Origin: Patescibacteria group bacterium
GTDB taxonomy: Bacteria; Patescibacteriota; Patescibacteriia; UBA9570; JAHJKD01
Length of the DNA: 64,000 nucleotides
Direction: 5' to 3'
Assembly (NCBI GenBank): GCA_041660885.1
Contig: JBAZVM010000006.1
Span: 15,063 to 79,062, forward strand
The notes under the pieces are model-generated. The model was not told the origin of the DNA. It ran no database searches and worked only from the letters and a program-made list of their open reading frames with translations. Every line of letters starts with the position of its first letter. The first letter of the stretch is position 1. Of the stretch, positions 227 to 62,731 are shown in pieces. Both the position numbers and the translations under genes were made by a program.

Positions 227-802
227 ATGAAATCATTAAAAGGAACGCAAACGGAAAAAAATTTATTAAAAGCTTTTGCCGGTGAATCGCAAGCTAGAAT
301 GCGCTATGATTATTTTAGCAGCCAAGCGAAAAAAGAGGGGCTGGAACAAATGGCCGAGATTTTTATGGAAACATCGCTTAACGAGAGGGAACACGCTAAA
401 AGATTCTTTAAATTTTTAGAAGGAAGACCAGTAGAAATTACGGCCACTTATCCCGCGGGGAAAATAAACGACACTCTAAAAAATTTAAAAGCCGCGGCCG
501 AAGGCGAACACGAAGAATGGACTAAGCTTTATCCGGAATTTGAAAAGCAAGCCTTAGCAGATGGATTTAAAGAAATCGCTTCGGCTTTTAAAGAAATCGC
601 GGAAGTGGAAGAAGCGCACGAAAAAAGATACAAAAAATTATACGACAATCTGGAAAGCGGGCAAGTATTCAAGAGAAATAAAACCGTTATTTGGAAGTGC
701 CGAAACTGTGGCTATTTGCACGAAGGAAAAGAAGCACCCAAAGTATGCCCCTCTTGCCTTCATCCGCAAGCTTATTTTCAGATTAAAGAAAATAATTACT
801 AA
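227..802 (+). CDS. rbr: rubrerythrin
   Basis: N-terminal ferritin-like di-iron domain (ExxH motifs: ESQARMRY, NEREHAKRF, EGEHEEW, EEAHEKRY). C-terminal rubredoxin-like CRNCG...CPSC. Confidence 0.9.
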   Translation: MKSLKGTQTEKNLLKAFAGESQARMRYDYFSSQAKKEGLEQMAEIFMETSLNEREHAKRFFKFLEGRPVEITATYPAGKINDTLKNLKAAAEGEHEEWTKLYPEFEKQALADGFKEIASAFKEIAEVEEAHEKRYKKLYDNLESGQVFKRNKTVIWKCRNCGYLHEGKEAPKVCPSCLHPQAYFQIKENNY

Positions 803-808
803 ACTATA

Positions 809-1219
809 ATGTCAAACCTTGAAGGAGCGCCTCAGACCATGGCGCAGGTAGTGGAAGGAGAGATTAAACTTTGGAAAACAGGCGAGGATGAGGACGAAAA
901 ATTAGTAGATTATTTAAATAATTTTCATGCGAATATTCCTTGTCGAGACGGTTATATTATAAATGAGACAATGTTTGGTGTACCTGCCGCAGAAGAGGTG
1001 AAGAAAGAGCGAGAAAGCAGAAGCGGTTTTTATCAAGCTCTGAATGATGCTCTAGAACAATCCGGAGCGAAAGAAGAAATACTAAATTTTGTCGAAGAGT
1101 TACGAGAGAAAAAAAGAAGCATTAGTCTAGGCGATGTCCCAAGAATTCGGGCATTGTTACTTCCGGTTTATGTTAAGATGAGAGAAAGGGGTTTTTCTCA
1201 TCAAGAAATAACAATATAA
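809..1219 (+). CDS. hypothetical protein
   Basis: 136-aa ORF starting directly after rbr. No motif recognised. Confidence 0.45.
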   Translation: MSNLEGAPQTMAQVVEGEIKLWKTGEDEDEKLVDYLNNFHANIPCRDGYIINETMFGVPAAEEVKKERESRSGFYQALNDALEQSGAKEEILNFVEELREKKRSISLGDVPRIRALLLPVYVKMRERGFSHQEITI

Positions 1220-1295
1220 TTACTAACTTTTTTTCTTTACAAAACGCTGTTTTTTTGCTAGACTAATACTGTCTAAATATTAATATTTCAAACAT

Positions 1296-1424
1296 ATGGC
1301 AAACTGCCAAAAGTGCGGGATTCCCTTAGATGAAGAAACTAAGTGTTCCTGCGAGGAAACTACTTGCTCTACCTGCTGCAGTTGCGAGGAAAAATGCGAC
1401 TGCGGATGCAAGAAAGAAAAATAA
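1296..1424 (+). CDS. small cysteine-rich protein (42 aa, 11 Cys), metallothionein-like or zinc-ribbon-like
   Basis: Hand translation: MANCQKCGIPLDEETKCSCEETTCSTCCSCEEKCDCGCKKEK. Below the ORF-track length cut-off. Followed immediately by an intrinsic terminator. Confidence 0.5.
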   Translation: MANCQKCGIPLDEETKCSCEETTCSTCCSCEEKCDCGCKKEK

Positions 1425-1437
1425 ACTTACCTCAGTT

Positions 1438-1466
1438 AAATCCCCTCTGCATAAAGAGGGGATTTT
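1438..1466 (+). terminator. intrinsic terminator hairpin
   Basis: AAATCCCCTCT-GCATAA-AGAGGGGATTT stem-loop with a U-rich tail. Confidence 0.6.
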
Positions 1467-1484
1467 AACATTAATTATATAAAT

Positions 1485-2975
1485 ATGGGAACATTTGATA
1501 ACCCAAAAAATAGATCAAGAAGAGTATATCCAACAGAAGTTAGAGCAGGAAGTGATGTACAAGAACTGAATCCCGCTGATTCCACTCGTAGAAAAAATAC
1601 TGAAGATGACCCCAGCCCTAATCTTACGTCTGACTTAGAAGAGGAAAAAAAGAATCTTGATAAAGAAGACGATTCTGATGAAATTGTAATAGAAAAGTTG
1701 TATCCTGTGCGGCCTTTGTTTGGACAATTTCCTGATTCCAAAGAAACCGAAGGAACAGCTCCGGCGCGAGTACAAGTTCCGCCAGGTAGTATGCGAGAGC
1801 CGGCCCCTCCCATTAAACAAACAACACCACCACCTGCGCCAAAAAAAAGCGGTTTTTTAGCTGGCTTAAAAAGAGGATTAGGCAGAATAGGAGCGGCTTT
1901 AGGTTTATACGCAGCTATAGCGCGAGGAGGCGAAACAGACGAAAAAGTTACGCCCCAACCTTTAGAACCGGAAAACCCCACGGAAATGCCGGCACAATTG
2001 ACTGAAGAAGCTGCAACTACAGCACCGGAAAAAGCACCGGAAGCAGAGCAAGCCAAACCCAGCGAAGAAATAATAAAATTAAGCACCGTGCGCGCGGGTG
2101 AAGGGCCGACTCATGCCATGTTACGCCAAGTTATGGCCAGCCCGGAATCTTTCGGCTTTGACCCAAAAACCATGAACCCTGCGGAATTTGTAAAAAATCT
2201 CGCTATTGAAACCGGGGCGATAACAGTTGATGATTCCGGTAAAATTATCAATGAAACCCGTATAGAAAAACCGGATAGTTTCGCTTTTGTTTTAAATACT
2301 GATAATCAGGGAAAACATTTTACCAATATTTATCCTGTGGAAACCCAAGTAGATAAAGATGGCAAAATTATTTCCAGCAAATTTTCAGAGCAGCCGGTTA
2401 GCGGCCAAGATGTATATGATGTAACTTATCAAGACGAACAAAATAGGCCATCTGCGGAAGAAATTTTAAAACAATTGCATGCCAGTATTGATCGCTCTAA
2501 TTTAGTCAGCCAAATTACTGCGCCAACAGAAAAACCGGCAGTTGCTGAAACTCAATCAGAAAATTCAACGGTTGCCGTGGAAACGGCGCCGGAAAACTCT
2601 ACGTCGGCGGCTATTATTCCCGGCGTTGAAATTGGCGGTACGGTTCATATAAAAAGAAAAGGAGAATTCAAGCCGGTGACGGTTAATAAAATTAATGAAG
2701 ACGGTACTGTTTGCCTGGTAGATAATAAAAACCGGCAGTTGATAAACCAAAAAACGAACGACGCCAATTTTACCTTGGAAGATGTAATTAGAACGCCCCA
2801 TGTGGATGATATCGTAAAAGTTAAAATAAAAGGGGAGATTATTGAAGGAAAAGTATGGAAAGTAAAACCGGATGGAACTTTCGGCATTATGTCTTTGGAT
2901 GAAAAAGAAATAATAAAAACTCCGCTTGGCTCGGAAAATTTTTCTTTGCGTTACTTGGCAATCAACGAAAGCTAG
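1485..2975 (+). CDS. hypothetical protein with a disordered Pro/Glu-rich N-terminal half and two C-terminal SH3/KOW-like repeats
   Basis: 496-aa ORF. Low-complexity PAPPIKQTTPPPAPKK region. Repeated motif KxGxxxxxxVxKxxxDGT near the C-terminus. Confidence 0.55.
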   Translation: MGTFDNPKNRSRRVYPTEVRAGSDVQELNPADSTRRKNTEDDPSPNLTSDLEEEKKNLDKEDDSDEIVIEKLYPVRPLFGQFPDSKETEGTAPARVQVPPGSMREPAPPIKQTTPPPAPKKSGFLAGLKRGLGRIGAALGLYAAIARGGETDEKVTPQPLEPENPTEMPAQLTEEAATTAPEKAPEAEQAKPSEEIIKLSTVRAGEGPTHAMLRQVMASPESFGFDPKTMNPAEFVKNLAIETGAITVDDSGKIINETRIEKPDSFAFVLNTDNQGKHFTNIYPVETQVDKDGKIISSKFSEQPVSGQDVYDVTYQDEQNRPSAEEILKQLHASIDRSNLVSQITAPTEKPAVAETQSENSTVAVETAPENSTSAAIIPGVEIGGTVHIKRKGEFKPVTVNKINEDGTVCLVDNKNRQLINQKTNDANFTLEDVIRTPHVDDIVKVKIKGEIIEGKVWKVKPDGTFGIMSLDEKEIIKTPLGSENFSLRYLAINES

Positions 2976-3526
2976 AGCGCGTGCTCCAATAAAATTTTTA
3001 CACCGATACCGATAAGAATTAAGCCTCCGATCAATTCGGCTTTTTTCCCTATTAAGTCTCCGAATTTTTTCCCCATGTAAACCGCCAGTAAGGAAAGAGT
3101 AAAAGTGATTGCCCCGATAATAGCGGATGCCAGCCAAATATTCATAACTATCAAGGCGAAAGTTATGCCCACCACTAACGCGTCGATACTGGTGGCTATG
3201 GCTAATAGTAAAAGAATTTTTAAAGAGGTAATGTCTGCTTGCTTTTCCTTTTCTATTTTAAAAGATTCAATAATCATTTTAACGCCAATGGCGGTTAAAA
3301 GGAAAAAGGCCACCCAATGATCGAAGCTGGTGATAAATTTTTCCAAACCGGAACCGATCAGCCAGCCGATAATCGGCATGAGCATCTGGAAAAAGCCGAA
3401 GAAAAAAGCAATTTTTATTGCTTTTGAGATTTTAATTTTCGAAACCATAGCACCATAAGCCGCGGCTACGGCCATGGCATCGAAAGAAAGCGAAATCGCG
3501 ATAAGGAAAATATTAAGCAAGGACAT
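2972..3526 (-). CDS. mntP: manganese efflux pump MntP
   Basis: Two DUF204-type repeats (SLSFDAMAVAAAYG, ATSIDALVVGITFAL). C-terminal GKKAELIGGLILIGIGVKIL matches recalled MntP sequence. Confidence 0.88.
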   Translation of the reverse strand: MSLLNIFLIAISLSFDAMAVAAAYGAMVSKIKISKAIKIAFFFGFFQMLMPIIGWLIGSGLEKFITSFDHWVAFFLLTAIGVKMIIESFKIEKEKQADITSLKILLLLAIATSIDALVVGITFALIVMNIWLASAIIGAITFTLSLLAVYMGKKFGDLIGKKAELIGGLILIGIGVKILLEHAL

Positions 3527-3527
3527 A

Positions 3528-4478
3528 TTAATAAAACATTTTACTGGTGGGAAAAAGTATCACGTCTTCCAAGCTGGTTTTATTGGTAAGTAGCATAATC
3601 AAGCGATCCACACCCAAGGCAATGCCGCCGCAAGGAGGCAAGCCCTTTTTTAATCCCGCGATGAATTCCATATCCACGGGATAGGCTTCTTTGCCTAATT
3701 TATTTCTTTCCTCTCTTTCCGCTTCCAAACGAGCAAACTGTTCTTGCCAATCTGTCAGTTCGGAAAAAGCATTGGCCAATTCTATGCCAGCGATATAAAG
3801 CTCAAAACGTTCCGCGAAAAATTCATTTTTCTTTTTAGAGAGCGCGGCCATAGATGCGGGGTAATCCGTTAAAAAAGTCGGTTTATCTTGCCCGAGCTTT
3901 CTTTCTATATCGGTTAAAAATATTTTATAGAATTTTTCCTCAAAATTAGTCTCTTGCATTAATTTTTTCAAATCAGTATTGGCGTATTTTTTAAAGGCCT
4001 GCTCGCAAGTAATATATTCCCAGGGAGGGGTTAAGTTTATTTTTTTGTTTTGATAGTTAAGATAATCTGATTTATTAAATTGCTTATTAATAAAATAAAT
4101 TAAATTTTCCGTGTCTTTGGCGATTCCCATATAATCCGTATTCACGCGATACCATTCCAGAATTTTAAATTCCAGATTATGAATGGGGGAGTTATCTTCT
4201 TCGTTTCTGAAAGCCGAAGTGATTTGAAAGATTTTTTCAAAGCCATCAGCAAGCAAGCGCTTCATGGCGTATTCCGGAGACATAATCAAATACGCCGGCT
4301 TTTTGGCGCCTTTAAAGCTAATCACTTCGGTTTTAAACGGCGTTAAATACGGCTCCATGCTGGGAACGGCTACCAGTTCCGGCGTGGCCACTTCTAGAAA
4401 TTTATTTTTTTTGAACCACTGCCGCGTGAAATCGGTTATGCGGCTGTAATTTTGCGCTATGGTTAATTTTTCTTTCAT
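3528..4478 (-). CDS. epmA: EF-P lysine ligase EpmA/GenX (truncated class II LysRS paralog)
   Basis: Class II aaRS motifs SPEYAMKRLL, FRNEE, ERFELYIAGIELANAF, GIALGVDRLIMLL. About 316 aa, with no anticodon-binding domain. Confidence 0.85.
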   Translation of the reverse strand: MKEKLTIAQNYSRITDFTRQWFKKNKFLEVATPELVAVPSMEPYLTPFKTEVISFKGAKKPAYLIMSPEYAMKRLLADGFEKIFQITSAFRNEEDNSPIHNLEFKILEWYRVNTDYMGIAKDTENLIYFINKQFNKSDYLNYQNKKINLTPPWEYITCEQAFKKYANTDLKKLMQETNFEEKFYKIFLTDIERKLGQDKPTFLTDYPASMAALSKKKNEFFAERFELYIAGIELANAFSELTDWQEQFARLEAEREERNKLGKEAYPVDMEFIAGLKKGLPPCGGIALGVDRLIMLLTNKTSLEDVILFPTSKMFY

Positions 4479-12023: not shown

Positions 12024-13445
12024 ATGCATAAAAGCGAAAAGCTGTTATACTTCTGCTTATTTTTTTTAGGCGGAGTTTTTACCGCATCCTTATGGCCTAA
12101 TATTTATTATGGCTTTATTATCGCTATTATTTTTTATGGGATTATAAAAAATTTTAGAATATTATTCTTATTATTGTGCGTCGCGGCTTTTTGGGGAGGC
12201 GGATATTATTTAAAAGAGTCATATATAAAAGAAAATAATTATTATAATAAAGAGATATCTTTTCAAGGCGTTGTTGCGCAAGAGACGGATGAAAGAAATC
12301 TATATACGAATTTAATAGTAAAATCAGATAAATTCAATGGGCTAGTTTTGGTGAAGGCTCCGGTGTATCCGCAATATCAGTATGGTGATTTGCTGGAAAT
12401 ATATTGCTTGATAGAAAAACCGGATAAAATAGAGGATTTTGATTACGCGAAATATTTGGCCATATCCGATATTTACAGTTTATGTTCCGATCCGCAAATA
12501 AAATTACTAGGTGAGCATAAAGGTGATATTATTCTGCAAAATATTTTTGCTTTAAAAAAATATTTGCAAAATATTATTAATAAAATTTGGACTATGCCAA
12601 GTTCGGCTTTCATGGCCGGGTTGCTTTTGGGAATGAAAAAGGGTTTGCCCGCGGAAATAGAGAATGATTTTAAAAGCACGGGCACAATCCATATTTTGGT
12701 CGTATCCGGTTCGCACCTGGTAGTTCTGGCCGCTTTTGTGCGCGAGCTGCTTAAAAATTTTTATATTAATAGGAAAAAACTTTTTTATATTATTGCCGGC
12801 GTATTGATTTTTTATGTGGTTTTAACCGGCATGTCGGCCGCGGCTGTGCGCGCGGCTTTATTAGCAATATTAATAATGCTGGCGGAAAAATTTTGCCGCC
12901 CAAAAGCCACGCTGAACATTCTTATCTTCAGCGCTTTTTTAATGGTAATACAGAATCCCAAAATTTTAGTTTACGATACCGGATTTCAACTTTCATTTTT
13001 AGCCACGGTCGGATTGGTTTATCTAAGTAAACCTATGGAGAAAGTGTTATTTTTTCTTCCGCAATTTCTCGGTATAAAAAATTTAATGGCGCAAACCCTT
13101 TCCGCCATAGCTTTAACCAATCCTATTATCTGGTATCAATTCGGCAGGCTCTCTCTTGTGGCGCCTTTAGCAAATTTATTAACAGTTCCGTTTATTAATA
13201 GCATTATGATTGCCGGCATGGTGGCGGTATTTTTAGCCGCGCTTATTCCCATTCTCGGCCAGCTGGCGGCTTGGCTGGTAATGCTGCTTATTAATTTGGT
13301 GCTGTTCATTAATCATTGGCTCGCATCACTTTCTTGGGCCAGCATTGCGGCGCCGGCGCTTTCGGCCTATTGGCTGGCAGCGATTTATTTAATTATTTTA
13401 GGAATTATTTACTTGTTAAACAGAAAAGACAACACACACGTTTAA
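12024..13445 (+). CDS. comEC: ComEC/Rec2 DNA-uptake channel, membrane part (DUF4131 plus competence domain)
   Basis: Polytopic membrane ORF. Competence-domain motif GTIHILVVSGSHL. Ends just before the tnpA element. Confidence 0.8.
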   Translation: MHKSEKLLYFCLFFLGGVFTASLWPNIYYGFIIAIIFYGIIKNFRILFLLLCVAAFWGGGYYLKESYIKENNYYNKEISFQGVVAQETDERNLYTNLIVKSDKFNGLVLVKAPVYPQYQYGDLLEIYCLIEKPDKIEDFDYAKYLAISDIYSLCSDPQIKLLGEHKGDIILQNIFALKKYLQNIINKIWTMPSSAFMAGLLLGMKKGLPAEIENDFKSTGTIHILVVSGSHLVVLAAFVRELLKNFYINRKKLFYIIAGVLIFYVVLTGMSAAAVRAALLAILIMLAEKFCRPKATLNILIFSAFLMVIQNPKILVYDTGFQLSFLATVGLVYLSKPMEKVLFFLPQFLGIKNLMAQTLSAIALTNPIIWYQFGRLSLVAPLANLLTVPFINSIMIAGMVAVFLAALIPILGQLAAWLVMLLINLVLFINHWLASLSWASIAAPALSAYWLAAIYLIILGIIYLLNRKDNTHV

Positions 13446-13985: not shown

Positions 13986-14849
13986 ATGTCTCAAAGAAAA
14001 ATACTTAAATTATTAATGGCATTGCTCTTACTTTGCGTAGGCGCGGGATATTTTTATATTGAGCAATCCAAACCCCATGGCTTGCAGGTTTATTATTTGA
14101 ATGTGGGGCAGGGGGATAGCGTTTTAATCCGCACGCCGGATAATCAGGATATTCTTATCGACGGCGGTCCGGATAAAGCCGTGCTTAGTGAATTGGGAAA
14201 GTATCTGCCGTTCTGGGATAGAGATATAGAGCTGATGTTGCTGACCCATCCGCATGAAGATCATATCGCCGGCTTAATACCCGTGCTTAATCAGTATCAG
14301 GTTAATAAAATTTTATATAACGATGTGGCTTATGAAAATAATAATTTCGCGGAATTTGAAAAAATAATTCAAGATAAAAAAATTGATACGGCGTCGTTTG
14401 TTTATGGAGATAAAATAAATTTAGCGCCGGATATTTATTTAGAAAGCGTTTACCCCTTTGGCAATAGCGACTTAAACGCCATAGAAAATATCAATAATAC
14501 TTCTTTAGTAAGCCGCTTGGTTTACAAAGAAAACGAGTTTATTTTTACCGGAGACGCGGAGCAAGAAACAGAGCAAATAATTCTGGATAATCAAATCAAT
14601 ATTCAAGCCGATGTTTTAAAAGTTGGGCATCACGGCTCAAAAACCGCTTCTATCGAAGCTTTTTTAGACGCGGTTAAACCTAGCCAAGCCGTAATCTCTT
14701 GCGGCGTGGGCAATAAATTCAAACACCCGCATTTTATTACGCTTTATAAGTTTCAGCAGAGAGATTATACAATTTGGCGCACGGATGAAGACGGCACTGT
14801 TAAATGCGAAGGAGACGGGATTGAAATTAATTGCGAGAAAATGCTATAA
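13986..14849 (+). CDS. comEC: ComEC C-terminal metallo-beta-lactamase domain, encoded as a separate ORF
   Basis: N-terminal TM helix. MBL motifs LNVGQGDS, THPHEDH, KVGHHGS. Confidence 0.85.
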   Translation: MSQRKILKLLMALLLLCVGAGYFYIEQSKPHGLQVYYLNVGQGDSVLIRTPDNQDILIDGGPDKAVLSELGKYLPFWDRDIELMLLTHPHEDHIAGLIPVLNQYQVNKILYNDVAYENNNFAEFEKIIQDKKIDTASFVYGDKINLAPDIYLESVYPFGNSDLNAIENINNTSLVSRLVYKENEFIFTGDAEQETEQIILDNQINIQADVLKVGHHGSKTASIEAFLDAVKPSQAVISCGVGNKFKHPHFITLYKFQQRDYTIWRTDEDGTVKCEGDGIEINCEKML

Positions 14850-55300: not shown

Positions 55301-55720
55301 ACAGTTCAATTATCACCGGAAGCGCTAAAAGGAGTGGATACGGTTTATTATCATCCCGTGGCTAATTATGGCGGTGTTTGGAATGAGCCGGTTACCGGAA
55401 GAGTGGCTCTTGATTTAAGCCCCTATACGCCGGAACAAAAAATGCAGATTATCCAGCTAACTAGGTTAATGAATGTGGCGGCTTTTATGGGAGAAAATCC
55501 AGAGCAACATGGATTAGGCGTAGCTCCGGATGTGGAAACATTTGTCGCTTTTGTTAATAAAGGCGAAGCTTTAAGCTGGCTGTATGATAGTAAAGTGGAT
55601 GGCGTGGCAATAGACATGGCAGACCGTGCCTTGCCGAAAACTATGAATCCACAAGAATGGCAGGATTATATCAGTTCTAATTTATTGCATACCCCTGATC
55701 AAAGAATGGCTGCGAAGTAG
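52373..55720 (+). CDS. very large hypothetical protein (1115 aa) with a polyproline tract and a central Gly/Ala-rich TM region
   Basis: Long ORF. PPPPGAMPPPPPSPAAPPAPPSGPP tract. Hydrophobic region IAVSAGLMGIGLAGGFAGGAIGASAVGAAAAGG. Confidence 0.6.
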   Translation: MPDATNQQEQQNQPKTPEKRKPSIWEGIKIFFRRGEQIQEEGAKKVDAVPEEIRPEVQQVVLESTDRIVRYLEQAEREIQEAMSAGIKTPSESIKQEIVLKYKIDQLSAQDASALLKKLELVKPAVDAGQINIRNIDDLNNNAVIPQNAGAREYHLSPEEVRKLSEQRDAVDVVGSAIYKPDDQVGPPIINPEDLIVSTDPAKRKAMPNINSLDPNLLTIQDMSPKKRRGPDAIPPGAGNLDAKLVDGTLLAIGGLVRLENDNVNTWQITEIQSGRVGVVNINNPKEKEWLKRGNDGKVDEIERTLTKDEIDALYPPAPVAASSGPTPPNPATPPPPGAMPPPPPSPAAPPAPPSGPPTRGRLGSLWDRVRGRGDSALTPEDKEKALLAKMSLREFIYSPDDKEAMIAKENAISTARGLYAREGNDANKNDYRLKINEYRAAIKEAINRKDSILTPEKKKQFLDELYILTVVDEATALYEAQQQAQRESQPDGIKKKGKELWARFTNHIDNRLNWYRGLSWKKKIAVSAGLMGIGLAGGFAGGAIGASAVGAAAAGGYALRLLGATVMAKTGARLGSDYARKRQQRRDLGDIQQTPESAEYLAETDLAKIESLDNALNDKLSSLLQNQARDKRNRLLAATGGAVLGAGASIGIGQVGRYLSHDIVGYFQGEAPTAEAPVEPAGTANTAEAMPPTSNVAPEAPSTEVIRPVATHYYTNEIEGTTGRDYESKSLLQLIEAHKTDLGYDSNTDGDPDKWVRHEFRTAMAELKGKGQWYDLTHQGDRVVLQVNPDGSHEYSFQNDSAIAPGEHLPQHAPATVAESAEQPALEPTKPEVIPEEHSLSTEEARVLHDMQHSHEDTMKPMKHMQASRTFERNWDTLQPLAESLGQTKEQFKDALLGHLDKGEDISDIYSHVAPTAEASVSTGVSADGVGESGGGGAATADETAKAEPQQEAAGIDSHADTHISAADTLDISSDTVQLSPEALKGVDTVYYHPVANYGGVWNEPVTGRVALDLSPYTPEQKMQIIQLTRLMNVAAFMGENPEQHGLGVAPDVETFVAFVNKGEALSWLYDSKVDGVAIDMADRALPKTMNPQEWQDYISSNLLHTPDQRMAAK

Positions 55721-55731
55721 CAGATCAAATT

Positions 55732-55756
55732 AAGCCCCGAAGCAATTCGGGGCTTT
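55732..55756 (+). terminator. intrinsic terminator with GNRA loop
   Basis: AAGCCCCGAA-GCAA-TTCGGGGCTT followed by a T-rich tail. Confidence 0.75.
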
Positions 55757-55774
55757 AATATGGGCTTTAGTATT

Positions 55775-55824
55775 CAAAGATATCCACAGTATAAAATTGC
55801 CATTTTAATATAGAGTGATACTAT
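55775..55824 (+). promoter_or_regulatory. 14-mer CAAAGATATCCACA box plus promoter upstream of the tRNA-like gene
   Basis: Box at 55775-55788. TTGCCA at 55797-55802, 16-nt spacer, TACTAT at 55819-55824. The same box-plus-promoter layout recurs at 56113-56164. Confidence 0.45.
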
Positions 55825-55832
55825 TTCTTTAG

Positions 55833-55875
55833 AGGTACTGTTGCTCGTATACTACGGGCAAAAGTGACTTGTCAA
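55833..55875 (-). repeat. inverted, degenerate copy of the tRNA-like 5-prime half plus a perfect 13-bp inverted repeat
   Basis: The reverse complement of 55833-55859 (GCCCGTAGTATACGAGCAACAGTACCT) matches 55927-55955 at 23 of 29 aligned positions. AGTGACTTGTCAA (55863-55875) is the exact reverse complement of 55956-55968. Confidence 0.6.
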
Positions 55876-55924
55876 TATATAGGCGTCCCAAATAGGGCGC
55901 TTTTATATTTATATGGTGGATCCC

Positions 55925-55999
55925 GGGCCCGTAGTGTAATGGCAGCACAGTACCTTTGACAAGTCACTAGTGCGGGTTCAATTCCCGTCGGGTCCACCA
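55925..55999 (+). tRNA. tRNA-like gene with encoded CCA but no canonical anticodon stem (possible pseudo-tRNA or recombination-scarred tRNA)
   Basis: 75 nt in total. Acceptor stem GGGCCCG/CGGGTCC. D arm GTGT-AATGGCA-GCAC. T arm GCGGG-TTCAATT-CCCGT. Discriminator A followed by CCA. The 17-nt anticodon-arm slot GTACCTTTGACAAGTCA cannot form a 5-bp stem. Confidence 0.6.
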
Positions 56000-56032
56000 C
56001 CTAAAAAACAACATTATTTAAATAACATTAAT

Positions 56033-56105
56033 AAACCCCAATGCCCTGTGCTCCGCCGTAGCGTAGCCGCTAGGCTGCGCAGAGGCGAGAATTTGGGGTT
56101 TATTT
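56033..56105 (+). terminator. long compound hairpin with U-rich tail downstream of the tRNA-like gene
   Basis: Outer stem AAACCCCAAT / ATTTGGGGTTT. Inner GC-rich hairpin GCGTAGCC-GCTA-GGCTGCGC (56061-56080). Followed by TTTATTT. Confidence 0.55.
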
Positions 56106-56112
56106 GTACCCC

Positions 56113-56164
56113 CAAAGATATCCACACCATAGGTATTGACAATATCCTCGCTCGGGTGTATTAT
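56113..56164 (+). promoter_or_regulatory. CAAAGATATCCACA box plus near-consensus sigma70 promoter driving the island leader
   Basis: Box at 56113-56126. TTGACA at 56136-56141, exact 17-nt spacer, TATTAT at 56159-56164. Confidence 0.65.
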
Positions 56165-56167
56165 AGC

Positions 56168-56896
56168 TGGTTCTTTTAAAATCAATTTTTGCCCTTACCG
56201 TTCAGCAAGCAATTGCTGGCCGGGTTATCCGTAACAAAAAAGCCTCAATCTAACCTTGAATTTGCAGGAGTGTTATACGGATGGAGGTTTTTTTGTTGCG
56301 GATATAAAGGGCTGCAACATACAGCGTCCGAAGGCCTCTGCCCCGCCTTGGCGGGGAAGAGGTCCGCGGTTCGCTGATATCCCTTCGAAGCTCGAGTGAA
56401 ACGAGAGCGAAGGAGGATGAATGAAGCAAATTGATATGCTCTTTACAATAGATTTATAAGCCACGCGGGAAACCAGGTTAAGGGCAGCAGGAATGTTATA
56501 TATAGGCACTTGCCTTCGAAAGCTCGTCCTATTGGTGGTGATATTATTATCGCTATTAATAGATCGAGCTTTTGGGCAAGTGCGCATAGCATTTCTACTG
56601 TCCTTGACCTGGCCCGCGTCCCTGTGAAGTTCCGAAAGGAACTGAACAGGACGGCGCGCCAGAACCCACTGAAGTGAACCCGAATGGGTACTTCACTGAA
56701 GGGGACCCCGATGGGCCCTTCAGGGAGATCGGAAACGATCTTCACGGGGATCCGAAAGGGTCTCTTGAGAGATTCGAAAGAATTTCTCGGGTATCCTGGC
56801 ATAGGGCCGGGTCAGTCATGGATAACGAGACATCACCGAGTGCGACCGCAACACAGGGCCGCACTTTTCCAGCAACTCCAAACGAGGTTAACAGCC
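56168..56896 (+). ncRNA. about 0.7 kb highly structured leader or large ncRNA candidate (many GNRA-capped hairpins)
   Basis: No credible ORF. Hairpins: 56203-56218 (GCAA loop), long-range helix 56226-56246 with 56283-56307, 56335-56362, 56382-56412, helix 56506-56527 with 56564-56584, 56621-56650 (CCTGT-GA-AGTTCC-GAAA-GGAACT-GA-ACAGG), 56696-56723, and three back-to-back GAAA hairpins at 56726-56741, 56746-56765 and 56767-56788. Confidence 0.55.
56840..56868 (+). terminator. possible attenuator hairpin just upstream of the cassette-1 RBS
   Basis: GTGCGACC-GCAACACAG-GGCCGCAC followed by TTTT. GAGG RBS at 56884-56887. Confidence 0.35.
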
Positions 56897-57640
56897 ATGA
56901 TGACCCTTCTGGCCCTTCTGACCCTGAACGCCTTCGCCGACGAGCCCGTCATCGACCGCATCATCATCCGCTCGTTCCCGACCGAGGCGGCCCCGATCGA
57001 TCCGTGCACGGACCCCTGCGCCAAGCCGGAGCCCGTCGTCAAGTACGTCGACACGGGCACGAACGACCACGACCAGGCGATTGCCGAGAGCGACAACGCC
57101 GCCGACGTCGCGATCGCCGAGAGTGCCGACGGCCGCGACATCGCCATCGCCACGGTCGAGTCCACAACCACGCTCGGTCTCGCCACCGAGGAGACCAAGC
57201 AGCAGGCGGCGCTGAGCCCGACGATCGAAGACGTCGCCCGAGCCGCTGCAGCTGGTGGGGCGCCGCTCTACATCAACATGGAGACCGGCATCATCAGCAC
57301 CGGCCGGCCCATGTACACCTCCGAGATCGTCGCCACGCAGGAAGGGAACCCCGCGGACCCGAAGACCAGCCTCACCTACGCCACCGGGCGCAAGGTGACC
57401 TCCTCGCAGCTCCGCGGCCTCCAGCCCCTCGACATCCGCCACAACGGCCACCTCGACTGGGCCCCGGCGATCGCGGCCACCGTCGTTGGATTCGCCGCGG
57501 GCTTCATCGCCGGCGGTGACTACCAGCACATCAACGACGGGCAGACCGACACCCTCTACGCGAACTACGGGCTCCGGTCCGTCCTCGCGGGCGCGGGCGT
57601 CGGCGCGGCCACCGGCGGGCTGGCCCTGTTCACCTTCTAG
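56897..57640 (+). CDS. high-GC cassette 1: secreted/membrane protein (247 aa) with Gly-zipper-like C-terminal helices
   Basis: GAGG RBS 9 nt upstream. Signal peptide MMTLLALLTLNAFA-DEP. GC3-rich codons. Repeats D(x)AIAES. C-terminal GFAAGFIAGG and AGAGVGAATGGLALFTF. Confidence 0.7.
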   Translation: MMTLLALLTLNAFADEPVIDRIIIRSFPTEAAPIDPCTDPCAKPEPVVKYVDTGTNDHDQAIAESDNAADVAIAESADGRDIAIATVESTTTLGLATEETKQQAALSPTIEDVARAAAAGGAPLYINMETGIISTGRPMYTSEIVATQEGNPADPKTSLTYATGRKVTSSQLRGLQPLDIRHNGHLDWAPAIAATVVGFAAGFIAGGDYQHINDGQTDTLYANYGLRSVLAGAGVGAATGGLALFTF

Positions 57641-57825
57641 CCTCTGGCTGGAGGTGAGCCCCGATCTTGGCCACGGGTGAGTTGGCCAAAAAACACTGCC
57701 CCGGGTTCCTTCACGAAGGGACCTGGGCAACTGGGAGGAGAAGTGAGATCAATCAAGACACAGCATCTTCTCTTCCCTTCCAGTTCAGTGCTTCTTAGCA
57801 AAGCTAGGGAGCAGTGAGAATGGAA
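57641..57825 (+). ncRNA. cassette 3-prime structured module, copy 1 (pseudoknot, mid hairpin, SD-like hairpin HP1, hairpin HP2)
   Basis: Pseudoknot: CCCG-ATCTTGGCCA-CGGG (57660-57677) with loop TTGGCCA pairing to TGGCCAA (57683-57689). Mid hairpin 57700-57727. HP1 57729-57785, with core GGGAGGAGAAG / CTTCTCTTCCC. HP2 57789-57813. Confidence 0.6.
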
Positions 57826-58021
57826 TTCGTTCTTTACAATAAAATCCGATTCAATAGCCCATTTGCAGGATAACCGGGCTGCGAAATATGACTGCATCAT
57901 AAATGATGTATCCATATTCCGTGGCCTGGCCTGCTAGGGTGCCTAAGTTCTTGTGCAGAGGGATTGTCCCACCGCGCATTTACCCCGGCTCCTTTTGGGC
58001 TGGGCCAGAACACGGTAACAC

Positions 58022-58042
58022 GGCCCTACTATCTATAGGGCC
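58022..58042 (+). promoter_or_regulatory. leader hairpin immediately upstream of the cassette-2 RBS
   Basis: GGCCCTA-CTATCTA-TAGGGCC, followed by a GGAG RBS at 58049-58052. Confidence 0.4.
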
Positions 58043-58058
58043 ATCACTGGAGAACGCC

Positions 58059-58502
<444 letters not shown>

Positions 58503-58685
58503 TCTCGGTGCCAGCTAGTCCGATCTTGATCCCGGACGATAATTGTGGATCACACCTACAGCCCCGAGTCCTAGATAGGACATCGGGCAACTGGGAGGAG
58601 AAGTGAGATCATACATGTTACAGCATCTTCTCTTCCCTTCCAGTTCAGTGCTTCTTAGCAAAGCTAGGGAGCAGTGAGAATGGAA
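58503..58685 (+). ncRNA. cassette 3-prime structured module, copy 2
   Basis: Pseudoknot: GTCCG-ATCTTGATCC-CGGAC (58518-58537) with loop TGATCC pairing to GGATCA (58547-58552). Mid hairpin 58563-58587. HP1 58589-58645. HP2 58649-58673. The last 100 nt equal copy 1 except for a 10-nt loop segment. Confidence 0.6.
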
Positions 58686-58698
58686 AAGGGGAGTAACT

Positions 58699-58782
58699 GA
58701 ATCACAGATTACGCAGATAAATATAGATAACACAGATATATTTTTAAGAGTAATCAGTATTAATCTGTGTAATCTGTGATTC
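58699..58782. mobile_element. CACAGAT-type inverted-repeat element A (MITE-like, no ORF)
   Basis: Left arm GAATCACAGATTACGCAGATAAA. The right arm reverse complement is GAATCACAGATTACACAGATTAA. 38-bp AT-rich centre. Confidence 0.55.
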
Positions 58783-58841
58783 AACGCCCTATGAGAAAAT
58801 CGTCGTACCTTTAAATTTATTATCAACCCCTTAACGGGTTT

Positions 58842-58897
58842 CAGGTCATGGAAGATGCGCGTTATATGAAAATATAACGATCGTCTCCCATGACCTG
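58842..58897 (+). promoter_or_regulatory. 56-nt extended hairpin with GAAA tetraloop in the cassette-3 leader
   Basis: 26-bp stem (3 mismatches, 1 GU pair) capped by GAAA. Its 3-prime arm overlaps the conserved GACCTGGCCCGCG motif. Confidence 0.55.
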
Positions 58898-58981
58898 GCC
58901 CGCGCCAGAGCTCGCACAAGGAGCATCCTGGCCAAGAAAGGGTCGGGTCAGTCTTGGGGTCACCCAGAACAGGAGTATGCC

Positions 58982-59296
58982 GTGAACATCAACTCGTGGT
59001 GGAAGTGGCTGTTGACCGTCGTCGTCACCCTCGTGGTCTTCGGACTCGGCATCGTCGTCGGGCACTACGCGTGGACTCCGTCCAACGCGCCCGTCGTCGT
59101 CGCGCAGTCCCAGACCTACCCCGACTTCCAGCAGCTCGCCGCGCTTGCCGCGAGCGGGTACGAGGTGGAGGTGGTCTACAACACCCCCGCCACCGTCCCC
59201 GTCGAGGTGCCGGTCTACGTGCCCGTCGAGGTCGAGCGCATCCCGGCCGAGGAGCCGAGCAAGGGCTCCAAGGCGTCGAAGGCCCCCGCGCGCTAG
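58982..59296 (+). CDS. high-GC cassette 3: small N-terminally anchored protein (104 aa)
   Basis: AGGAG RBS 6 nt upstream of the GTG start. TM helix WKWLLTVVVTLVVFGLGIVVG. Val/Pro/Glu-rich tail. Confidence 0.6.
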   Translation: MNINSWWKWLLTVVVTLVVFGLGIVVGHYAWTPSNAPVVVAQSQTYPDFQQLAALAASGYEVEVVYNTPATVPVEVPVYVPVEVERIPAEEPSKGSKASKAPAR

Positions 59297-59470
59297 CAGT
59301 AGCGCATGGGATAGTCCGACTCTGACCCCGGACGAAAATTGTGGGTCAAAGCTACGAAAGGGTACCCTTCGGGGGACCCGCGGGAGGGAACTGAGATATG
59401 ACTGCAACAGCATGTTCTCTCCCTTCCGCAAAAGTGTTCGTGAGGTTTCTACATAAATAAACCTCGAGAA
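59297..59470 (+). ncRNA. cassette 3-prime structured module, copy 3 (diverged, with compensatory changes)
   Basis: Pseudoknot: GTCCG-ACTCTGACCC-CGGAC (59314-59333) with loop TGACCC pairing to GGGTCA (59343-59348). Mid hairpin with UUCG loop 59360-59379. HP1 GGGAGGGAAC / GTTCTCTCCC 59382-59423. Terminal hairpin 59442-59465. Confidence 0.6.
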
Positions 59471-59486
59471 TAGTTAGCGGAATAAA

Positions 59487-59597
59487 GGTATCACAGACGG
59501 AATCACAGATTACACAGATAAATAAAAAATAAACACAGATAAGAAAACATCTGTGCAATCTGTGATCAATGTATTTATCTGCGGCATCCGTGATTCC
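59487..59597. mobile_element. CACAGAT-type inverted-repeat element B (MITE-like, no ORF)
   Basis: Outer inverted repeat 59499-59524 versus 59572-59597 (22 of 26 match). Nested inner CACAGAT/ATCTGTG repeats. Confidence 0.55.
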
Positions 59598-59648
59598 CTT
59601 ACTCCTTGCTGGACATATTAATTATTTCAGGTATTATAATAAACAAGG

Positions 59649-59675
59649 CGGCTCCCAATGCGGAGGCGTTTTTTT
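59649..59675 (+). terminator. intrinsic terminator
   Basis: CGGCTCC-CAATGC-GGAGGCG stem followed by T7. Confidence 0.55.
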
Positions 59676-59691
59676 ATTTATGGCGATGAAT

Positions 59692-60169
59692 GAATCACAA
59701 ATCACACAGATAAATCTCCGGATGGTATCGATAATTAATTTATTTAATATAAATATATGGAAGAAAATAATAAGGAAATAACATATAAAGTTATAGGTGT
59801 TGCTTATGAAGTACATAATAATTTGGGACCGGGGTTTCAAGAGGTTATTTATCAAAGGGCGCTGGCGCGAGAATTTATGGCAAAAAATATTAATTTCGCG
59901 CGTGAAGAATGGATTCCGGTATACTATAAAAATACCGTAATTGGAAAAAGAAGAGTGGATTTTACACTGTCAAAAATCATCGTCGAAATAAAAGCAAGAG
60001 CTGAAATTAAACCTAAAGATTACATTCAAACTTTATCATATTTAAAAGCGACTAAATTTAAAATAGCTCTGCTATTAAATTTTGGTACGAAACAACTACA
60101 AGTCAAACGATTTATTAATTAATCTAGTTATCTGTGTTTATCTGCATTCATTTGTGTCATCTGTGATTC
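59692..60169. mobile_element. CACAGAT-type inverted-repeat element C carrying the GxxExxY gene
   Basis: Left arm GAATCACAAATCACACAGATAAAT (59692-59715). The right arm reverse complement is GAATCACAGATGACACAAAT (60150-60169). Confidence 0.55.
59757..60122 (+). CDS. GxxExxY family protein (PD-(D/E)XK nuclease-like)
   Basis: 121 aa. Eponymous motif GFQEVIY. Overall pattern YxVIGxAxEVHxxLGxGFxExxYxxAL...RxDFxxxxxIVEIKA...LNFG matches recalled family members. Confidence 0.8.
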   Translation: MEENNKEITYKVIGVAYEVHNNLGPGFQEVIYQRALAREFMAKNINFAREEWIPVYYKNTVIGKRRVDFTLSKIIVEIKARAEIKPKDYIQTLSYLKATKFKIALLLNFGTKQLQVKRFIN

Positions 60170-60187
60170 AGCTACTCCCTTTTGTTC

Positions 60188-60216
60188 TTGACATTTTCCT
60201 CTTCGCATGTTACGTT
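60188..60216 (+). promoter_or_regulatory. candidate promoter for cassette 4
   Basis: TTGACA at 60188-60193, 17-nt spacer, TACGTT at 60211-60216. Confidence 0.45.
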
Positions 60217-60404
60217 ATTTCGTTCTCCTGCCCATTTCCCATGGGGATTTTTGCGGCGAATTTTTGTGTTTATTTTAGCCGTATAAACCCCCAAAGGACA
60301 ATGGGGAGTTTCTCAAGCCGTTACCACAGGGGTGGAACGGCGATGTGCGACAGGAAGAGAGAACCCGCCCTCCCACGATAGTGGGACGGCATAGTGAGAA
60401 GACA

Positions 60405-61661
<1,257 letters not shown>

Positions 61662-61750
61662 GTTTTTTTGGCAGCGCCCCGCTATGGCGAGGTGCCTGCC
61701 CCCGGGAGGAGAAGTGAGATTGTCAGCTACTGCATCTTCTCTTCCCTCCC
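61662..61750 (+). ncRNA. cassette 3-prime module, copy 4 (a different upstream hairpin, then HP1)
   Basis: GGCAG(CGCC-CCGCTAT-GGCG)AGGTGCCTGCC hairpin. HP1 GGGAGGAGAAG / CTTCTCTTCCC at 61704-61746, with loop TGAGAT-TGTCAGCTAC-TGCAT. Confidence 0.5.
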
Positions 61751-61876
61751 GACGTATTATCCTTTAATCCTTAGAGGCTAGTATATTGGGAGAACAAGCC
61801 CGTGTTCTCCATGTACTCCGTGTCTTCGTGATTCAGTTCCGGAATCATTGTAACTTCGTAAAAAATATGTCATAAT

Positions 61877-62731
61877 TTGGCTATGTTAAGAAATTGTTTC
61901 TATTATTTTTTTGGTATTATAATTTTATTCATTAATAAAATAAGATACGGCTTTTTTGGATATAAAAAACCGCGAGATTTTCCGGTTTCGGCTATGGAAA
62001 AGGCCATTAAATACGATCAGTCCGTGGTTGATGGCTGGCTGATAAATCTAAAACAATACGAGGGCATGGATATCAAAGATAAAACCGTGCTGGAATTAGG
62101 CCCGGGAGCCGATTTAGGCATTGCCCTGCTTTTATTAAACAAAGGCGCGAAAAAATATACGGCTTTGGATGTAAATAATTTGGTTGAAACCGTGCCCGAA
62201 TTATTCTATGAAAAATTATTGGAAAGCATCAATAATAAGGAATTAATCAGCGCTTTAAAAGATAAAAATAAAATAAATTATATTTGCGATAAAAATTTCA
62301 ATATTTCAAAAATAAATATTGAAGATAGCGCAATAATATTCAGCCAAGCCGCGTTTGAACATTTCAGCGATCCGGAAAAAGCCTTAGAGCAATTAAGCCA
62401 AACAGCAAAATCTGGCGCTATTCTGATAGCCGAGGTGGATTTGCAAACGCACACTAAGTGGCTGCGCGAAAAAGATCCTTTAAACATTTATCGTTATGCC
62501 AATAATATATATAATTTATTCCATTTTTCCGGAATACCAAACAGAATCCGTCCGCAGGAATATAAAAAAATATTGGAAAAAAATAATTGGAAGAATGTAG
62601 TGATTAAACCGAAGAATATCTTAAGCGGCCAAGAGCTAAAAAAAATAAGCCCCAGGCTGGCTGAACCGTTTAATCAGGAATCAGCTCAAATGCAAACGCT
62701 CAGTTTTATTTTATGCGCCACCAAAAAGTAA
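61877..62731 (+). CDS. class I SAM-dependent methyltransferase
   Basis: Motif I VLELGPGADLG. Rossmann-like layout. The probable start is ATG 61883. Confidence 0.75.
   Translation: MAMLRNCFYYFFGIIILFINKIRYGFFGYKKPRDFPVSAMEKAIKYDQSVVDGWLINLKQYEGMDIKDKTVLELGPGADLGIALLLLNKGAKKYTALDVNNLVETVPELFYEKLLESINNKELISALKDKNKINYICDKNFNISKINIEDSAIIFSQAAFEHFSDPEKALEQLSQTAKSGAILIAEVDLQTHTKWLREKDPLNIYRYANNIYNLFHFSGIPNRIRPQEYKKILEKNNWKNVVIKPKNILSGQELKKISPRLAEPFNQESAQMQTLSFILCATKK

Follow-up and report, generated by a model that had tools for sequence, protein, structure and literature searches.

The small pseudoknot-like motif that we call module A is one optional module of a larger system of structured leaders and trailers, which flank the genes of extremely GC-rich cassettes in the genome of a Patescibacteria group bacterium (GenBank assembly GCA_041660885.1, contig JBAZVM010000006.1, positions 15,063 to 79,062). 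We analyzed this 64-kb stretch over its full length (hereafter the window), starting from a first-pass annotation that had described module A behind three genes and had overlooked the larger system. The window is ~40% GC, and outside the cassettes it is an ordinary chromosomal stretch whose genes include those for PFK, aldolase, PFOR, hydrogenase, GlmS, a release factor, ribosomal protein L10, Lgt and ComEC. The cassettes form an island of four units (62–70% GC) that come after a tRNA-like gene and all lie on the + strand. Each unit consists of a 5' leader, an open reading frame (ORF) and a 3' trailer; the four-module trailer, A-B-C-D, spans ~180 nt and follows the GC-rich ORF. Our favored reading, which we hold tentatively and with rather less than even confidence, is that the structures in trailers and leaders protect the ends of mRNAs for surface proteins, which would be long-lived and possibly processed, with module A as an accessory knot.

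Three copies of module A were found, with exactly the sequences and positions that the first-pass annotation had reported:

57653..57697 (core 57660-57689), + strand: module A copy 1, CCCG-ATCTTGGCCA-CGGG-TGAGT-TGGCCAA
58507..58556 (core 58518-58552), + strand: module A copy 2, GTCCG-ATCTTGATCC-CGGAC-GATAATTGT-GGATCA
59299..59355 (core 59314-59348), + strand: module A copy 3, GTCCG-ACTCTGACCC-CGGAC-GAAAATTGT-GGGTCA

The layout described earlier was confirmed in all three copies: a 4–5 bp stem (S1), a 10-nt loop, a 5–9 nt linker and a 6–7 nt downstream partner that is complementary to the 3' part of the loop (S2). Zero nucleotides separate the loop segment from the returning S1 strand, and the resulting loop lengths (L1, 3–4 nt; L2, 0 nt; L3, 5–9 nt) are sterically feasible for an H-type knot. 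The motif had been placed directly after the stop codon; in fact it starts 19, 15 and 17 nt past the stop in cassettes 1, 2 and 3, respectively.

Pairs were counted in a gap-free, linker-less alignment of the paired parts of the three copies (alignment A6). Results showed standard pairing in 97% of alignment cells across 11 pairs, four of which had changed on both sides and still paired (one in S1, from U:A to C:G, and three in S2). Only 8 of 500 column shuffles reached the observed pairing and compensatory values, and sliding the S2 partner by 1–3 columns reduced pairing to 20–55% and left zero compensatory pairs. With compensatory changes present in both S1 and S2, the earlier view that the fold was selected rather than produced by drift looks right, although the 'double compensatory change' claimed between copies 2 and 3 is actually one compensatory base pair. 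A loose descriptor of the layout matched about once per 4.4 kb per strand in the window; thus, a lone copy would be meaningless, and it is the covariation among homologous copies that constitutes the evidence. Coming from three related sequences of one strain, this covariation is suggestive and not proof. Copies 2 and 3 are 82% identical over 44 nt, and copy 1 counts for slightly less because the two strands of its S2 double as direct repeats of the palindrome TTGGCCA(A).

In module A, helix stacking contributed −9 to −10 kcal/mol in S1 and −11 to −15 kcal/mol in S2, and either hairpin alone amounted to −4.6 to −9.4 kcal/mol; the knot is thus favored in energy over each hairpin by itself. With the usual pseudoknot penalty applied (a general-knowledge estimate), the knot would plausibly be a credible ground state of module A. 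A weak outer helix could also close each copy, and in copies 2 and 3 it is part of the minimum-free-energy fold:

GGTG 57653-56 with CACT 57694-97, + strand: possible weak closing helix of copy 1
GGTG 58507-10 with CACC 58553-56, + strand: possible weak closing helix of copy 2
GTAGC 59299-303 with GCTAC 59351-55, + strand: possible weak closing helix of copy 3

We also considered that there may be no knot at all. That is, the two helices could be mutually exclusive hairpins, or S2 could be a functionless accident of common ancestry and palindromic cores (GGCC, GATC). Nested-only folding preferred S1 only in copy 2 and settled on S2 in the other two copies, and the shuffle control ignores the relatedness of the copies; the small number of related copies, the chance frequency of the layout and the repeated palindrome of copy 1 point the same way. 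Nevertheless, three of the six S2 pairs and one of the five S1 pairs had changed on both sides with zero S2 pairs broken, the S2 strands of copies 2 and 3 form a genuine inverted repeat and not a direct one, and the L2 = 0 geometry permits coaxial stacking of the helices. We regard these alternatives, taken together, as unlikely. By itself, module A is a candidate motif of modest weight: its three copies all come from one strain.

The first-pass annotation had not recognized the motif, and neither did the databases: all 4227 models of Rfam 15 (cmscan) gave no match to module A at gathering thresholds, and nothing appeared for it at E up to 10 in 55700-62000 or in short trailer segments scanned with lax filters. 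Rfam scans of the window, the island, two trailers and L060, a related contig introduced below, returned only a tRNA and weak generic miRNA-hairpin matches (to modules C and D). A suggested kinship with pistol ribozymes or small riboswitches could not be sustained, as no covariance model of these classes scored even weakly. Pistol (RF02679) was rejected for want of a match at gathering thresholds or at E up to 10, and the small pseudoknot riboswitches (preQ1-I/II/III, SAM-II, SAM-V, fluoride, guanidine-III) likewise had no family-model match. Pistol, preQ1, SAM-II and guanidine-III resemble module A only in small size and in the generic path from hairpin loop to downstream knot, and their conserved nucleotides are all missing from it. 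The position of the motif is not that of a riboswitch either: it lies 15–19 nt 3' of a stop codon, and the next start codon is at least 370 nt downstream. This location behind genes instead of in a leader argues against a riboswitch, and the element is moreover dispensable.

The remainder of the trailer is made up of modules B, C and D, which were present in all six GC-rich cassettes, four of them in the window and two homologous ones in L060, and after 0 of ~50 host genes. Module A had been described behind three cassettes, 1 to 3; the fourth window cassette and both L060 cassettes lack it (3/6 in total). In the cassette 4 trailer a T7 run stands in its place, ahead of B. The trailers of the window were delimited as follows:

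57698..57826, + strand: cassette 1 trailer, with B at 57698-57728, C (purine/pyrimidine) at 57731-57783 and D at 57778-57826; fold, RNAalifold and covariance model (104 bits)
58561..58686, + strand: cassette 2 trailer, with B at 58561-58588, C at 58591-58643 and D at 58638-58686; repeat family D7, fold, RNAalifold and covariance model (111 bits)
59360..59482, + strand: cassette 3 trailer, with B at 59360-59379, C at 59380-59429 and D at 59424-59482; fold, RNAalifold and covariance model (66 bits)
61662..61810, + strand: cassette 4 trailer, with B at 61670-61700, C at 61703-61751, D at 61746-61792 and an extra hairpin at 61788-61810; covariance model (91 bits)

Module B is a GC hairpin; its base is conserved, and its top is variable but covaries. 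Module C is a hairpin in which a purine run (GGGAGGAGAAG) pairs with a pyrimidine run (CTTCTCTTCCC), the latter allowing two pairing registers. Module D is a long hairpin whose 5' closing strand runs straight on from the 3' arm of C; each of the six copies of D contains an unchanged GAGAA motif. The C-D segments of cassettes 1 and 2, which follow unrelated ORFs, share 95% identity across 101 nt. The RNAalifold consensus of C-D for the six cassettes of two genomes contained 22 pairs, 8 of them with compensatory changes. When a covariance model was built on C-D (model R1, with E-values to be taken as rough), only the six GC-rich cassettes matched it (66–111 bits) among the 64-kb window, L060 and two high-GC loci (L065 and L066).

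All modules lie within untranslated regions and are co-oriented with the ORFs. The trailers were markedly more stable than shuffled sequences (z = −3.5 to −4.8), and in all six the sense-strand fold was stabler than the antisense fold, by 5 to 22 kcal/mol; summed over the trailer folds there were 29 G-U pairs in sense and 13 in antisense. A consensus scan detected no intrinsic terminator at the trailers, and the sequence past module D is not U-rich. An intrinsic (Rho-independent) terminator was rejected accordingly, there being no hairpin with a U tract in any trailer. We likewise rejected the idea that hairpin C contains a small ORF (with GTG or ATG as its start, behind the GGAGG-like arm), as its reading frame differs between copies.

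The coding regions of the window cassettes, given here with their GC content at third codon positions (GC3), are:

56897..57640, + strand: cassette 1 ORF (WC752_03320), 247 aa with a signal peptide and a C-terminal membrane segment, GC3 0.93, TAG stop
58059..58502, + strand: cassette 2 ORF, 147 aa with a lipoprotein signal, Thr-Asp (TD) repeats and a Cys-rich C-terminal domain, GC3 0.91, TAG stop
58982..59296, + strand: cassette 3 ORF, 104 aa, membrane-anchored, GC3 0.97, TAG stop; homologue at L060 80-352
60405..61661, + strand: cassette 4 ORF, a 418-aa lipoprotein with five MopE-type metal-binding repeats (PF11617, E = 3e-32) and TD repeats, GC3 0.93, TAG stop
58254-58499 and 61440-61658 in the window, and 5185-5409 in L060: the Cys-rich C-terminal domain shared by cassette proteins

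These ORFs are genuine coding regions with strong GC1/GC2/GC3 periodicity, and all of them encode secreted, lipid-anchored or membrane-anchored proteins. Their GC3 ranged from 0.88 to 0.97 (six ORFs, including L060 80-352 and 4273-5412), as opposed to a host mean of 0.42 (range 0.22–0.52). Protein searches found no homologue of the cassette 1 product, which is an orphan, and among 1.8 billion representatives only low-complexity TD-repeat matches to that of cassette 2. The Cys-rich domain (~75–80 aa, C..C..W...CxLxxA..C...STYG) follows the Thr-Asp repeats in cassettes 2 and 4, and a profile search gave no homologue of it beyond these two genomes. Two proteins with a C-terminal STYG motif (P0098 and P0100) were dismissed as relatives, since they are unrelated LTD-domain proteins.

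The cassette ORFs also agreed in their stop codon. All six end in TAG (at 57638, 58500, 59294 and 61659 in the window; 350 and 5410 in L060), whereas of the 47 host ORFs 38 stop at TAA, 5 at TAG and 4 at TGA. In cassette 3, three TAGs stand in frame inside 21 nt. Together with the presence of a structure behind the stop in three cassettes, this bias raises the question of whether module A affects UAG termination, through read-through, pausing or recycling, as some viral 3' pseudoknots do. Known read-through and frameshift stimulators lie ~5–9 nt from the recoding site. The spacers of module A exceed this distance, and they led us to reject it, along with the lack of a conserved downstream extension of the ORF, as a stimulator of read-through or −1 frameshifting. 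Read-through would meet the next stop after one codon in cassette 3 (the second in-frame TAG is two codons on), would add 9 codons up to a TGA in cassette 2 and would add ~57 unconserved codons in cassette 1. Moreover, the TAG preference is independent of module A, because three of the cassettes that end in TAG lack it. An effect on UAG termination is already disfavored by these reading frames, and we give it only a very slim chance. Viral 3' H-type pseudoknots, both read-through stimulators and exonuclease-resistant RNAs (xrRNAs), are similar to module A in topology, in proximity to a UAG stop, in compactness and in being possibly closed by a helix. They differ in that module A has too long a spacer, has no extension ORF, shows no xrRNA-type three-way junction or ring, and resides in a bacterial chromosome.

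Comparative evidence came from two genomes, those of the window strain and of L060. The protein search with cassette 4 yielded a sole useful relative (P0091; 49% identity over 99% of the query), which is encoded on L060, a 6.4-kb AT-rich Patescibacteria contig. Along L060, a GC-rich homologue of cassette 3 is followed by a palindromic element, then by HicAB and four MNT/HEPN pairs, and then by an orphan piece made of the 3' half of hairpin C and D; next come a GC-rich homologue of cassette 4 and a membrane-protein gene that is the same as the one downstream of the window island (62.7 kb onward). Both L060 cassettes have modules B, C and D, GC3 of 0.88–0.89 and TAG stops, and both are without module A. 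The cassette 4 trailer is 85% identical to its L060 counterpart over 105 nt, and the two cassette 4 proteins are ~58% identical over aligned columns, with third positions matching at 72% of conserved residues. By this comparison, the trailers are better conserved than their ORFs.

The sharp transitions in GC content are not artifacts. Four further assemblies from other samples were 100% identical to window positions 58394-60730, and we concluded that the GC-rich/AT-rich junctions are real, because five independent assemblies agree there and a second genome shows the same pattern. An assembly chimera behind the GC jumps is thereby ruled out. Metagenomes that yielded the strain are SRR18595301, SRR6484324, ERZ27249449 and JGI 3300014208. 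The nearest high-GC homologues of the MopE gene (from one Deltaproteobacteria and one Myxococcota metagenome-assembled genome) occur in compact gene contexts with neither leader nor trailer. These two loci suggest that the ends belong to the Patescibacteria locus rather than moving with the gene. Wider searches did not extend the family. The 17-mer GGGAGGAGAAGTGAGAT had 57 matches in species-representative genomes, against ~70 estimated by chance, and none was accompanied by a partner arm. A gapped hairpin-C pattern found only a same-strain fragment (L059) and one chance match in metagenome contigs, three exact patterns had no match in viral contigs, and blastn of the island against plasmids and phages produced no match.

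The 5' ends of the cassettes are structured as well. Each cassette has a strongly structured leader, of which two were delimited:

56605..56896, + strand: cassette 1 leader, with closing helix GACCTGGCCCG paired with CGGGTCAGTC; −146 kcal/mol, z = −8.1
58838..58981, + strand: cassette 3 leader, an AT-rich-tipped hairpin followed by the common CCTGGCCCGCG ... GGGTCGGGTCAGTC core (repeat family I10)

The cassette 1 leader is a domain of ~290 nt in which a long helix encloses several perfect hairpins, mostly with GAAA-type tetraloops; it also contains interleaved GTGAAG/CTTCAC and CTGAAG/CTTCAG segments. Its helix motif was found again at the start of cassette 3, which keeps only the leader core.

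We propose, with the reserve stated above, that these structures act as ends of stable messages. The cassettes would be transcribed on the + strand, at least the first three possibly from position 56136, where the sole strong + strand promoter ahead of cassettes 1–3 is located (TTGACA-17-TATTAT). Endonucleases would cut where an AU-rich single-stranded spacer separates a trailer from the leader that follows, and the GC-rich structures stacked at both ends would block exonucleases, such that each message lasts. Module A would be folded as an H-type pseudoknot, its 4–5 bp hairpin pairing through the loop with 6–7 nt downstream, possibly within a short outer helix, and would form the last barrier ahead of the coding region for a 3'-to-5' exonuclease. 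A distance of 15–19 nt past the stop lies just outside the footprint of a terminating ribosome on the mRNA, and module A could therefore stay folded during translation. We infer the co-transcription, the endonucleolytic cutting of the spacers and the blockage of exonucleases. Well-known cases lend support: stable 3' stem-loops, such as repetitive extragenic palindromic (REP) elements, puf operon hairpins and the cry retroregulator, shield upstream mRNA from 3' exonucleases, and 5'-terminal stem-loops guard against 5'-end-dependent decay. The very high GC3 could be part of the same design, since AU-rich single-stranded sites open to cleavage are then few; alternatively, it could be the result of repeated import from an organism of high GC content.

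The structural properties of the trailers are those of the 3'-stabilizer class, namely a stable sense-strand structure in the 3' untranslated region that is conserved independently of the ORF. Like REP elements and their composites (bacterial interspersed mosaic elements, BIMEs), the Rhodobacter puf hairpins and the 'positive retroregulator' of Bacillus thuringiensis cry, the trailers are stable on the sense strand and located just 3' of coding regions. They also have in common the lack of a U tract, repetition after several genes and AU-rich spacers between units. In contrast to those elements, the trailer has four modules over ~180 nt, a pseudoknot, an equally structured 5' leader and a restriction to GC-rich cassettes. 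No REP-type GTAG/RAYT association was found at the trailers.

Several observations weigh against this proposal. Module A is absent from half of the cassettes and so is not essential to the role of the trailer, and it is known from just three copies in one strain, two of them close in sequence. A plain hairpin would be enough for protection from exonucleases, and the need for a pseudoknot is not explained by the model. The sense-strand bias fails to separate RNA from top-strand DNA, because G-T wobbles form in single-stranded DNA. Lastly, the near-identity of C-D in cassettes 1 and 2 and the orphan half-hairpin of L060 fit a recombination site at least as well.

The main rival takes up this last point: the hairpins would act in single-stranded DNA as recombination or capture sites that reshuffle the cassette array, comparable in function to the attC sites of integrons or to the subterminal hairpins of IS200/IS605-type elements, and module A would again be accessory. 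The switch in GC content is sharp at leader start and trailer end, and C-D is nearly the same behind unrelated ORFs, as are attC sites between unrelated cassettes within one chromosomal integron. The syntenic L060 locus holds typical cassette cargo (HicAB and the four MNT/HEPN pairs) between its GC-rich cassettes. The orphan piece at a cassette junction there (L060 3845-3895, right after an MNT gene stop) is of the cassette 3 trailer type and comprises the 3' arm of C from CCTTCCGC onward and D, which places the rearrangement breakpoint within hairpin C. The trailers appear to be recipient-owned, as attC sites are, given that the closest GC-rich MopE homologues have none. ComEC, a DNA-uptake protein, is encoded in the window. 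Finally, the + strand has positive cumulative GC skew, and the folding strand would on this basis be the lagging-strand template, exposed as single-stranded DNA.

The expected machinery and signatures of such a site were, on the other hand, not found. Among more than 40 window ORFs scanned there was no IntI/Phage_integrase or other recombinase domain, and no reverse transcriptase, HUH or other transposase; the absence of an integrase is not decisive by itself, because integrase-less clusters exist. Candidate attC boxes (RYYYAAC / GTTRRRY) were rejected: cassettes 1 and 2 have GGGCAAC and GTTCAGT near hairpin C, but the AAC/GTT core is not conserved, being absent from cassettes 3 and 4 and both L060 cassettes. 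In all six trailers the coding (top) strand folds better, opposite to the usual attC. IS200/IS605-type ends and targets of diversity-generating retroelements were also rejected for lack of core motifs, enzymes or a template repeat. An 11-bp direct repeat, TCTTTACAATA (56440 and 57831), had to be discarded as a target-site duplication; both copies follow a D-like element and their flanks align, which makes it part of the repeat unit. No cassette presence/absence polymorphism was seen among the five assemblies of different samples. In L060, no hairpin recombination sites occur between the toxin-antitoxin units (660-3841), which are parted by repeated promoters instead; most HicB/HicA and MNT/HEPN units are preceded by nearly the same promoter element, GGTGGAC-T7GG-T7GG-TAGCAT, of which the contig has five copies. 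The conserved 5' leader and own ribosome-binding site of each cassette fit transcription units. On balance, we consider a role as DNA sites to be unlikely, though it is the most substantial competitor of the stable-message proposal.

Integron attC arrays, including clusters of attC sites lacking integron-integrases (CALINs), are among the closest known systems. They share with the island a co-oriented ORF coupled to an imperfect, strand-specific hairpin that is near-identical between unrelated cassettes, cargo that is foreign in composition, and toxin-antitoxin cassettes at the syntenic locus (L060). The island differs from them in having no conserved core, no integrase in 64 kb, long leaders and probable promoters of its own, and a stabler coding strand.

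A further explanation also places the function in RNA: the trailer would be set free from the 3' untranslated region as a stable RNA, or would offer a platform to an RNA-binding protein, with possible roles in regulation, localization or mRNA export. Here module A would set the 5' boundary, for instance by halting a 5'-to-3' exonuclease in the manner of viral xrRNAs. The better conservation of trailers than of the preceding ORFs, the compact and possibly helix-closed knot at the trailer 5' end and the invariant GAGAA of module D agree with this idea; no target or partner protein can be named, however, half of the cassettes are without module A, and no likeness to xrRNA or small RNA families emerged in Rfam. 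We judge a released trailer RNA to be rather improbable.

Our literature search found no prior description of a leader-ORF-trailer system. The nearest report concerns a Gracilibacterium in which a hypervariable surface gene with PTD repeats has long stem-loops in both untranslated regions, 5' and 3' (Sieber et al. 2019, PMC6851277). The authors discuss the flanking stem-loops as recombination or transcription signals, and PTD-type repeats were found also in an extracellular protein of an abundant co-occurring Colwellia population (PMC6851277). By its description the gene resembles the cassettes in belonging to a Candidate Phyla Radiation bacterium, in encoding an extracellular protein with Thr-Asp-type repeats and in its flanking stem-loops. 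It differs in that it is a single gene with simple hairpins of 14–15 bp, and no modular trailer, pseudoknot or GC3 anomaly is described for it (PMC6851277).

More broadly, the leader-ORF-trailer units might constitute an undescribed, integrase-independent system of cassette capture or expression in Patescibacteria, a suggestion that we regard as a long shot. Surface genes with high-GC codon usage, perhaps from a host or prey, would then be captured or kept in a fixed chromosomal slot, framed by structured RNA or DNA modules that are the organism's own, and the trailer, pseudoknot included, would be the element recognized by capture, exchange or RNA-handling machinery. In an extreme version, the stable GC-rich messages would be meant for use in, or mimicry of, a high-GC partner cell. 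The protein of one cassette, cassette 4, bears repeats of a type characteristic of Myxococcota-like organisms. Should the fold be confirmed, module A and the B-C-D trailer would count as new structured RNA motifs of the Candidate Phyla Radiation, for which, to our knowledge, very few cis-acting RNAs have been described. We hold the cassette context (GC3, TAG stops and the same slot in two diverged genomes) to be more important than the motif itself. It could show how ultra-small episymbiotic bacteria acquire, stabilize or express surface proteins, possibly for host attachment, and whether extreme synonymous GC is maintained for mRNA stability within an AT-rich genome.

Other features were noted in and around the island. 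AT-rich palindromic elements resembling miniature inverted-repeat transposable elements (MITEs) lie precisely in the gap between a trailer's end and the promoter that follows (window 58685-58790, 59490-59605, 59689-60183 and ~61830-61850; L060 480-662 and 3895-3930). Their terminal inverted repeats are ~45 nt long, GGAGTAAC-TGAATCACAGATTACRCAGATAAAT, with a CACGAA variant in L060, and all six matches to the repeat in the window fall inside the island. One inverted-repeat pair (59691-60170) brackets a gene of the PDDEXK_3 / GxxExxY nuclease family (ORF 59757-60122; PF13366, E = 2e-34). This arrangement suggests that the nuclease-gene unit may be a small selfish element, and the shorter palindromes its non-autonomous derivatives. 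At 59610-59680 and at L060 3931-3995, a position kept in both genomes, a promoter-like site is followed near-immediately by a hairpin and T-run terminator (GGCGGCTCC...GGAGGCGTTTTTTT); the predicted transcript is only ~30 nt.

Upstream of the cassettes, the tRNA-like gene (55925-55999) reached 47 bits with the Rfam tRNA model. The anticodon arm departs from the canonical form and is palindromic (TTGACAAGTCA), and ARAGORN assigned the gene a 2-base anticodon. About 50 nt upstream (55839-55880), part of the gene's 5' half occurs again in inverted and rearranged form, and the gene and its partial copy may be the scar of an integration event. The region 56136-56440 begins with a near-consensus promoter and continues for ~280 nt with no convincing ORF, containing long hairpins and a degenerate D-like element (56330-56425) that is followed by the same TCTTTACAATA spacer as after cassette 1; in its layout it looks like an 'empty' first unit of the array. 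Far from the island, ComEC appears to be split into an ORF with the Competence domain and a separate one with the metallo-beta-lactamase domain (12024-13445 and 13986-14849), between which lie ~540 nt of 24% GC.

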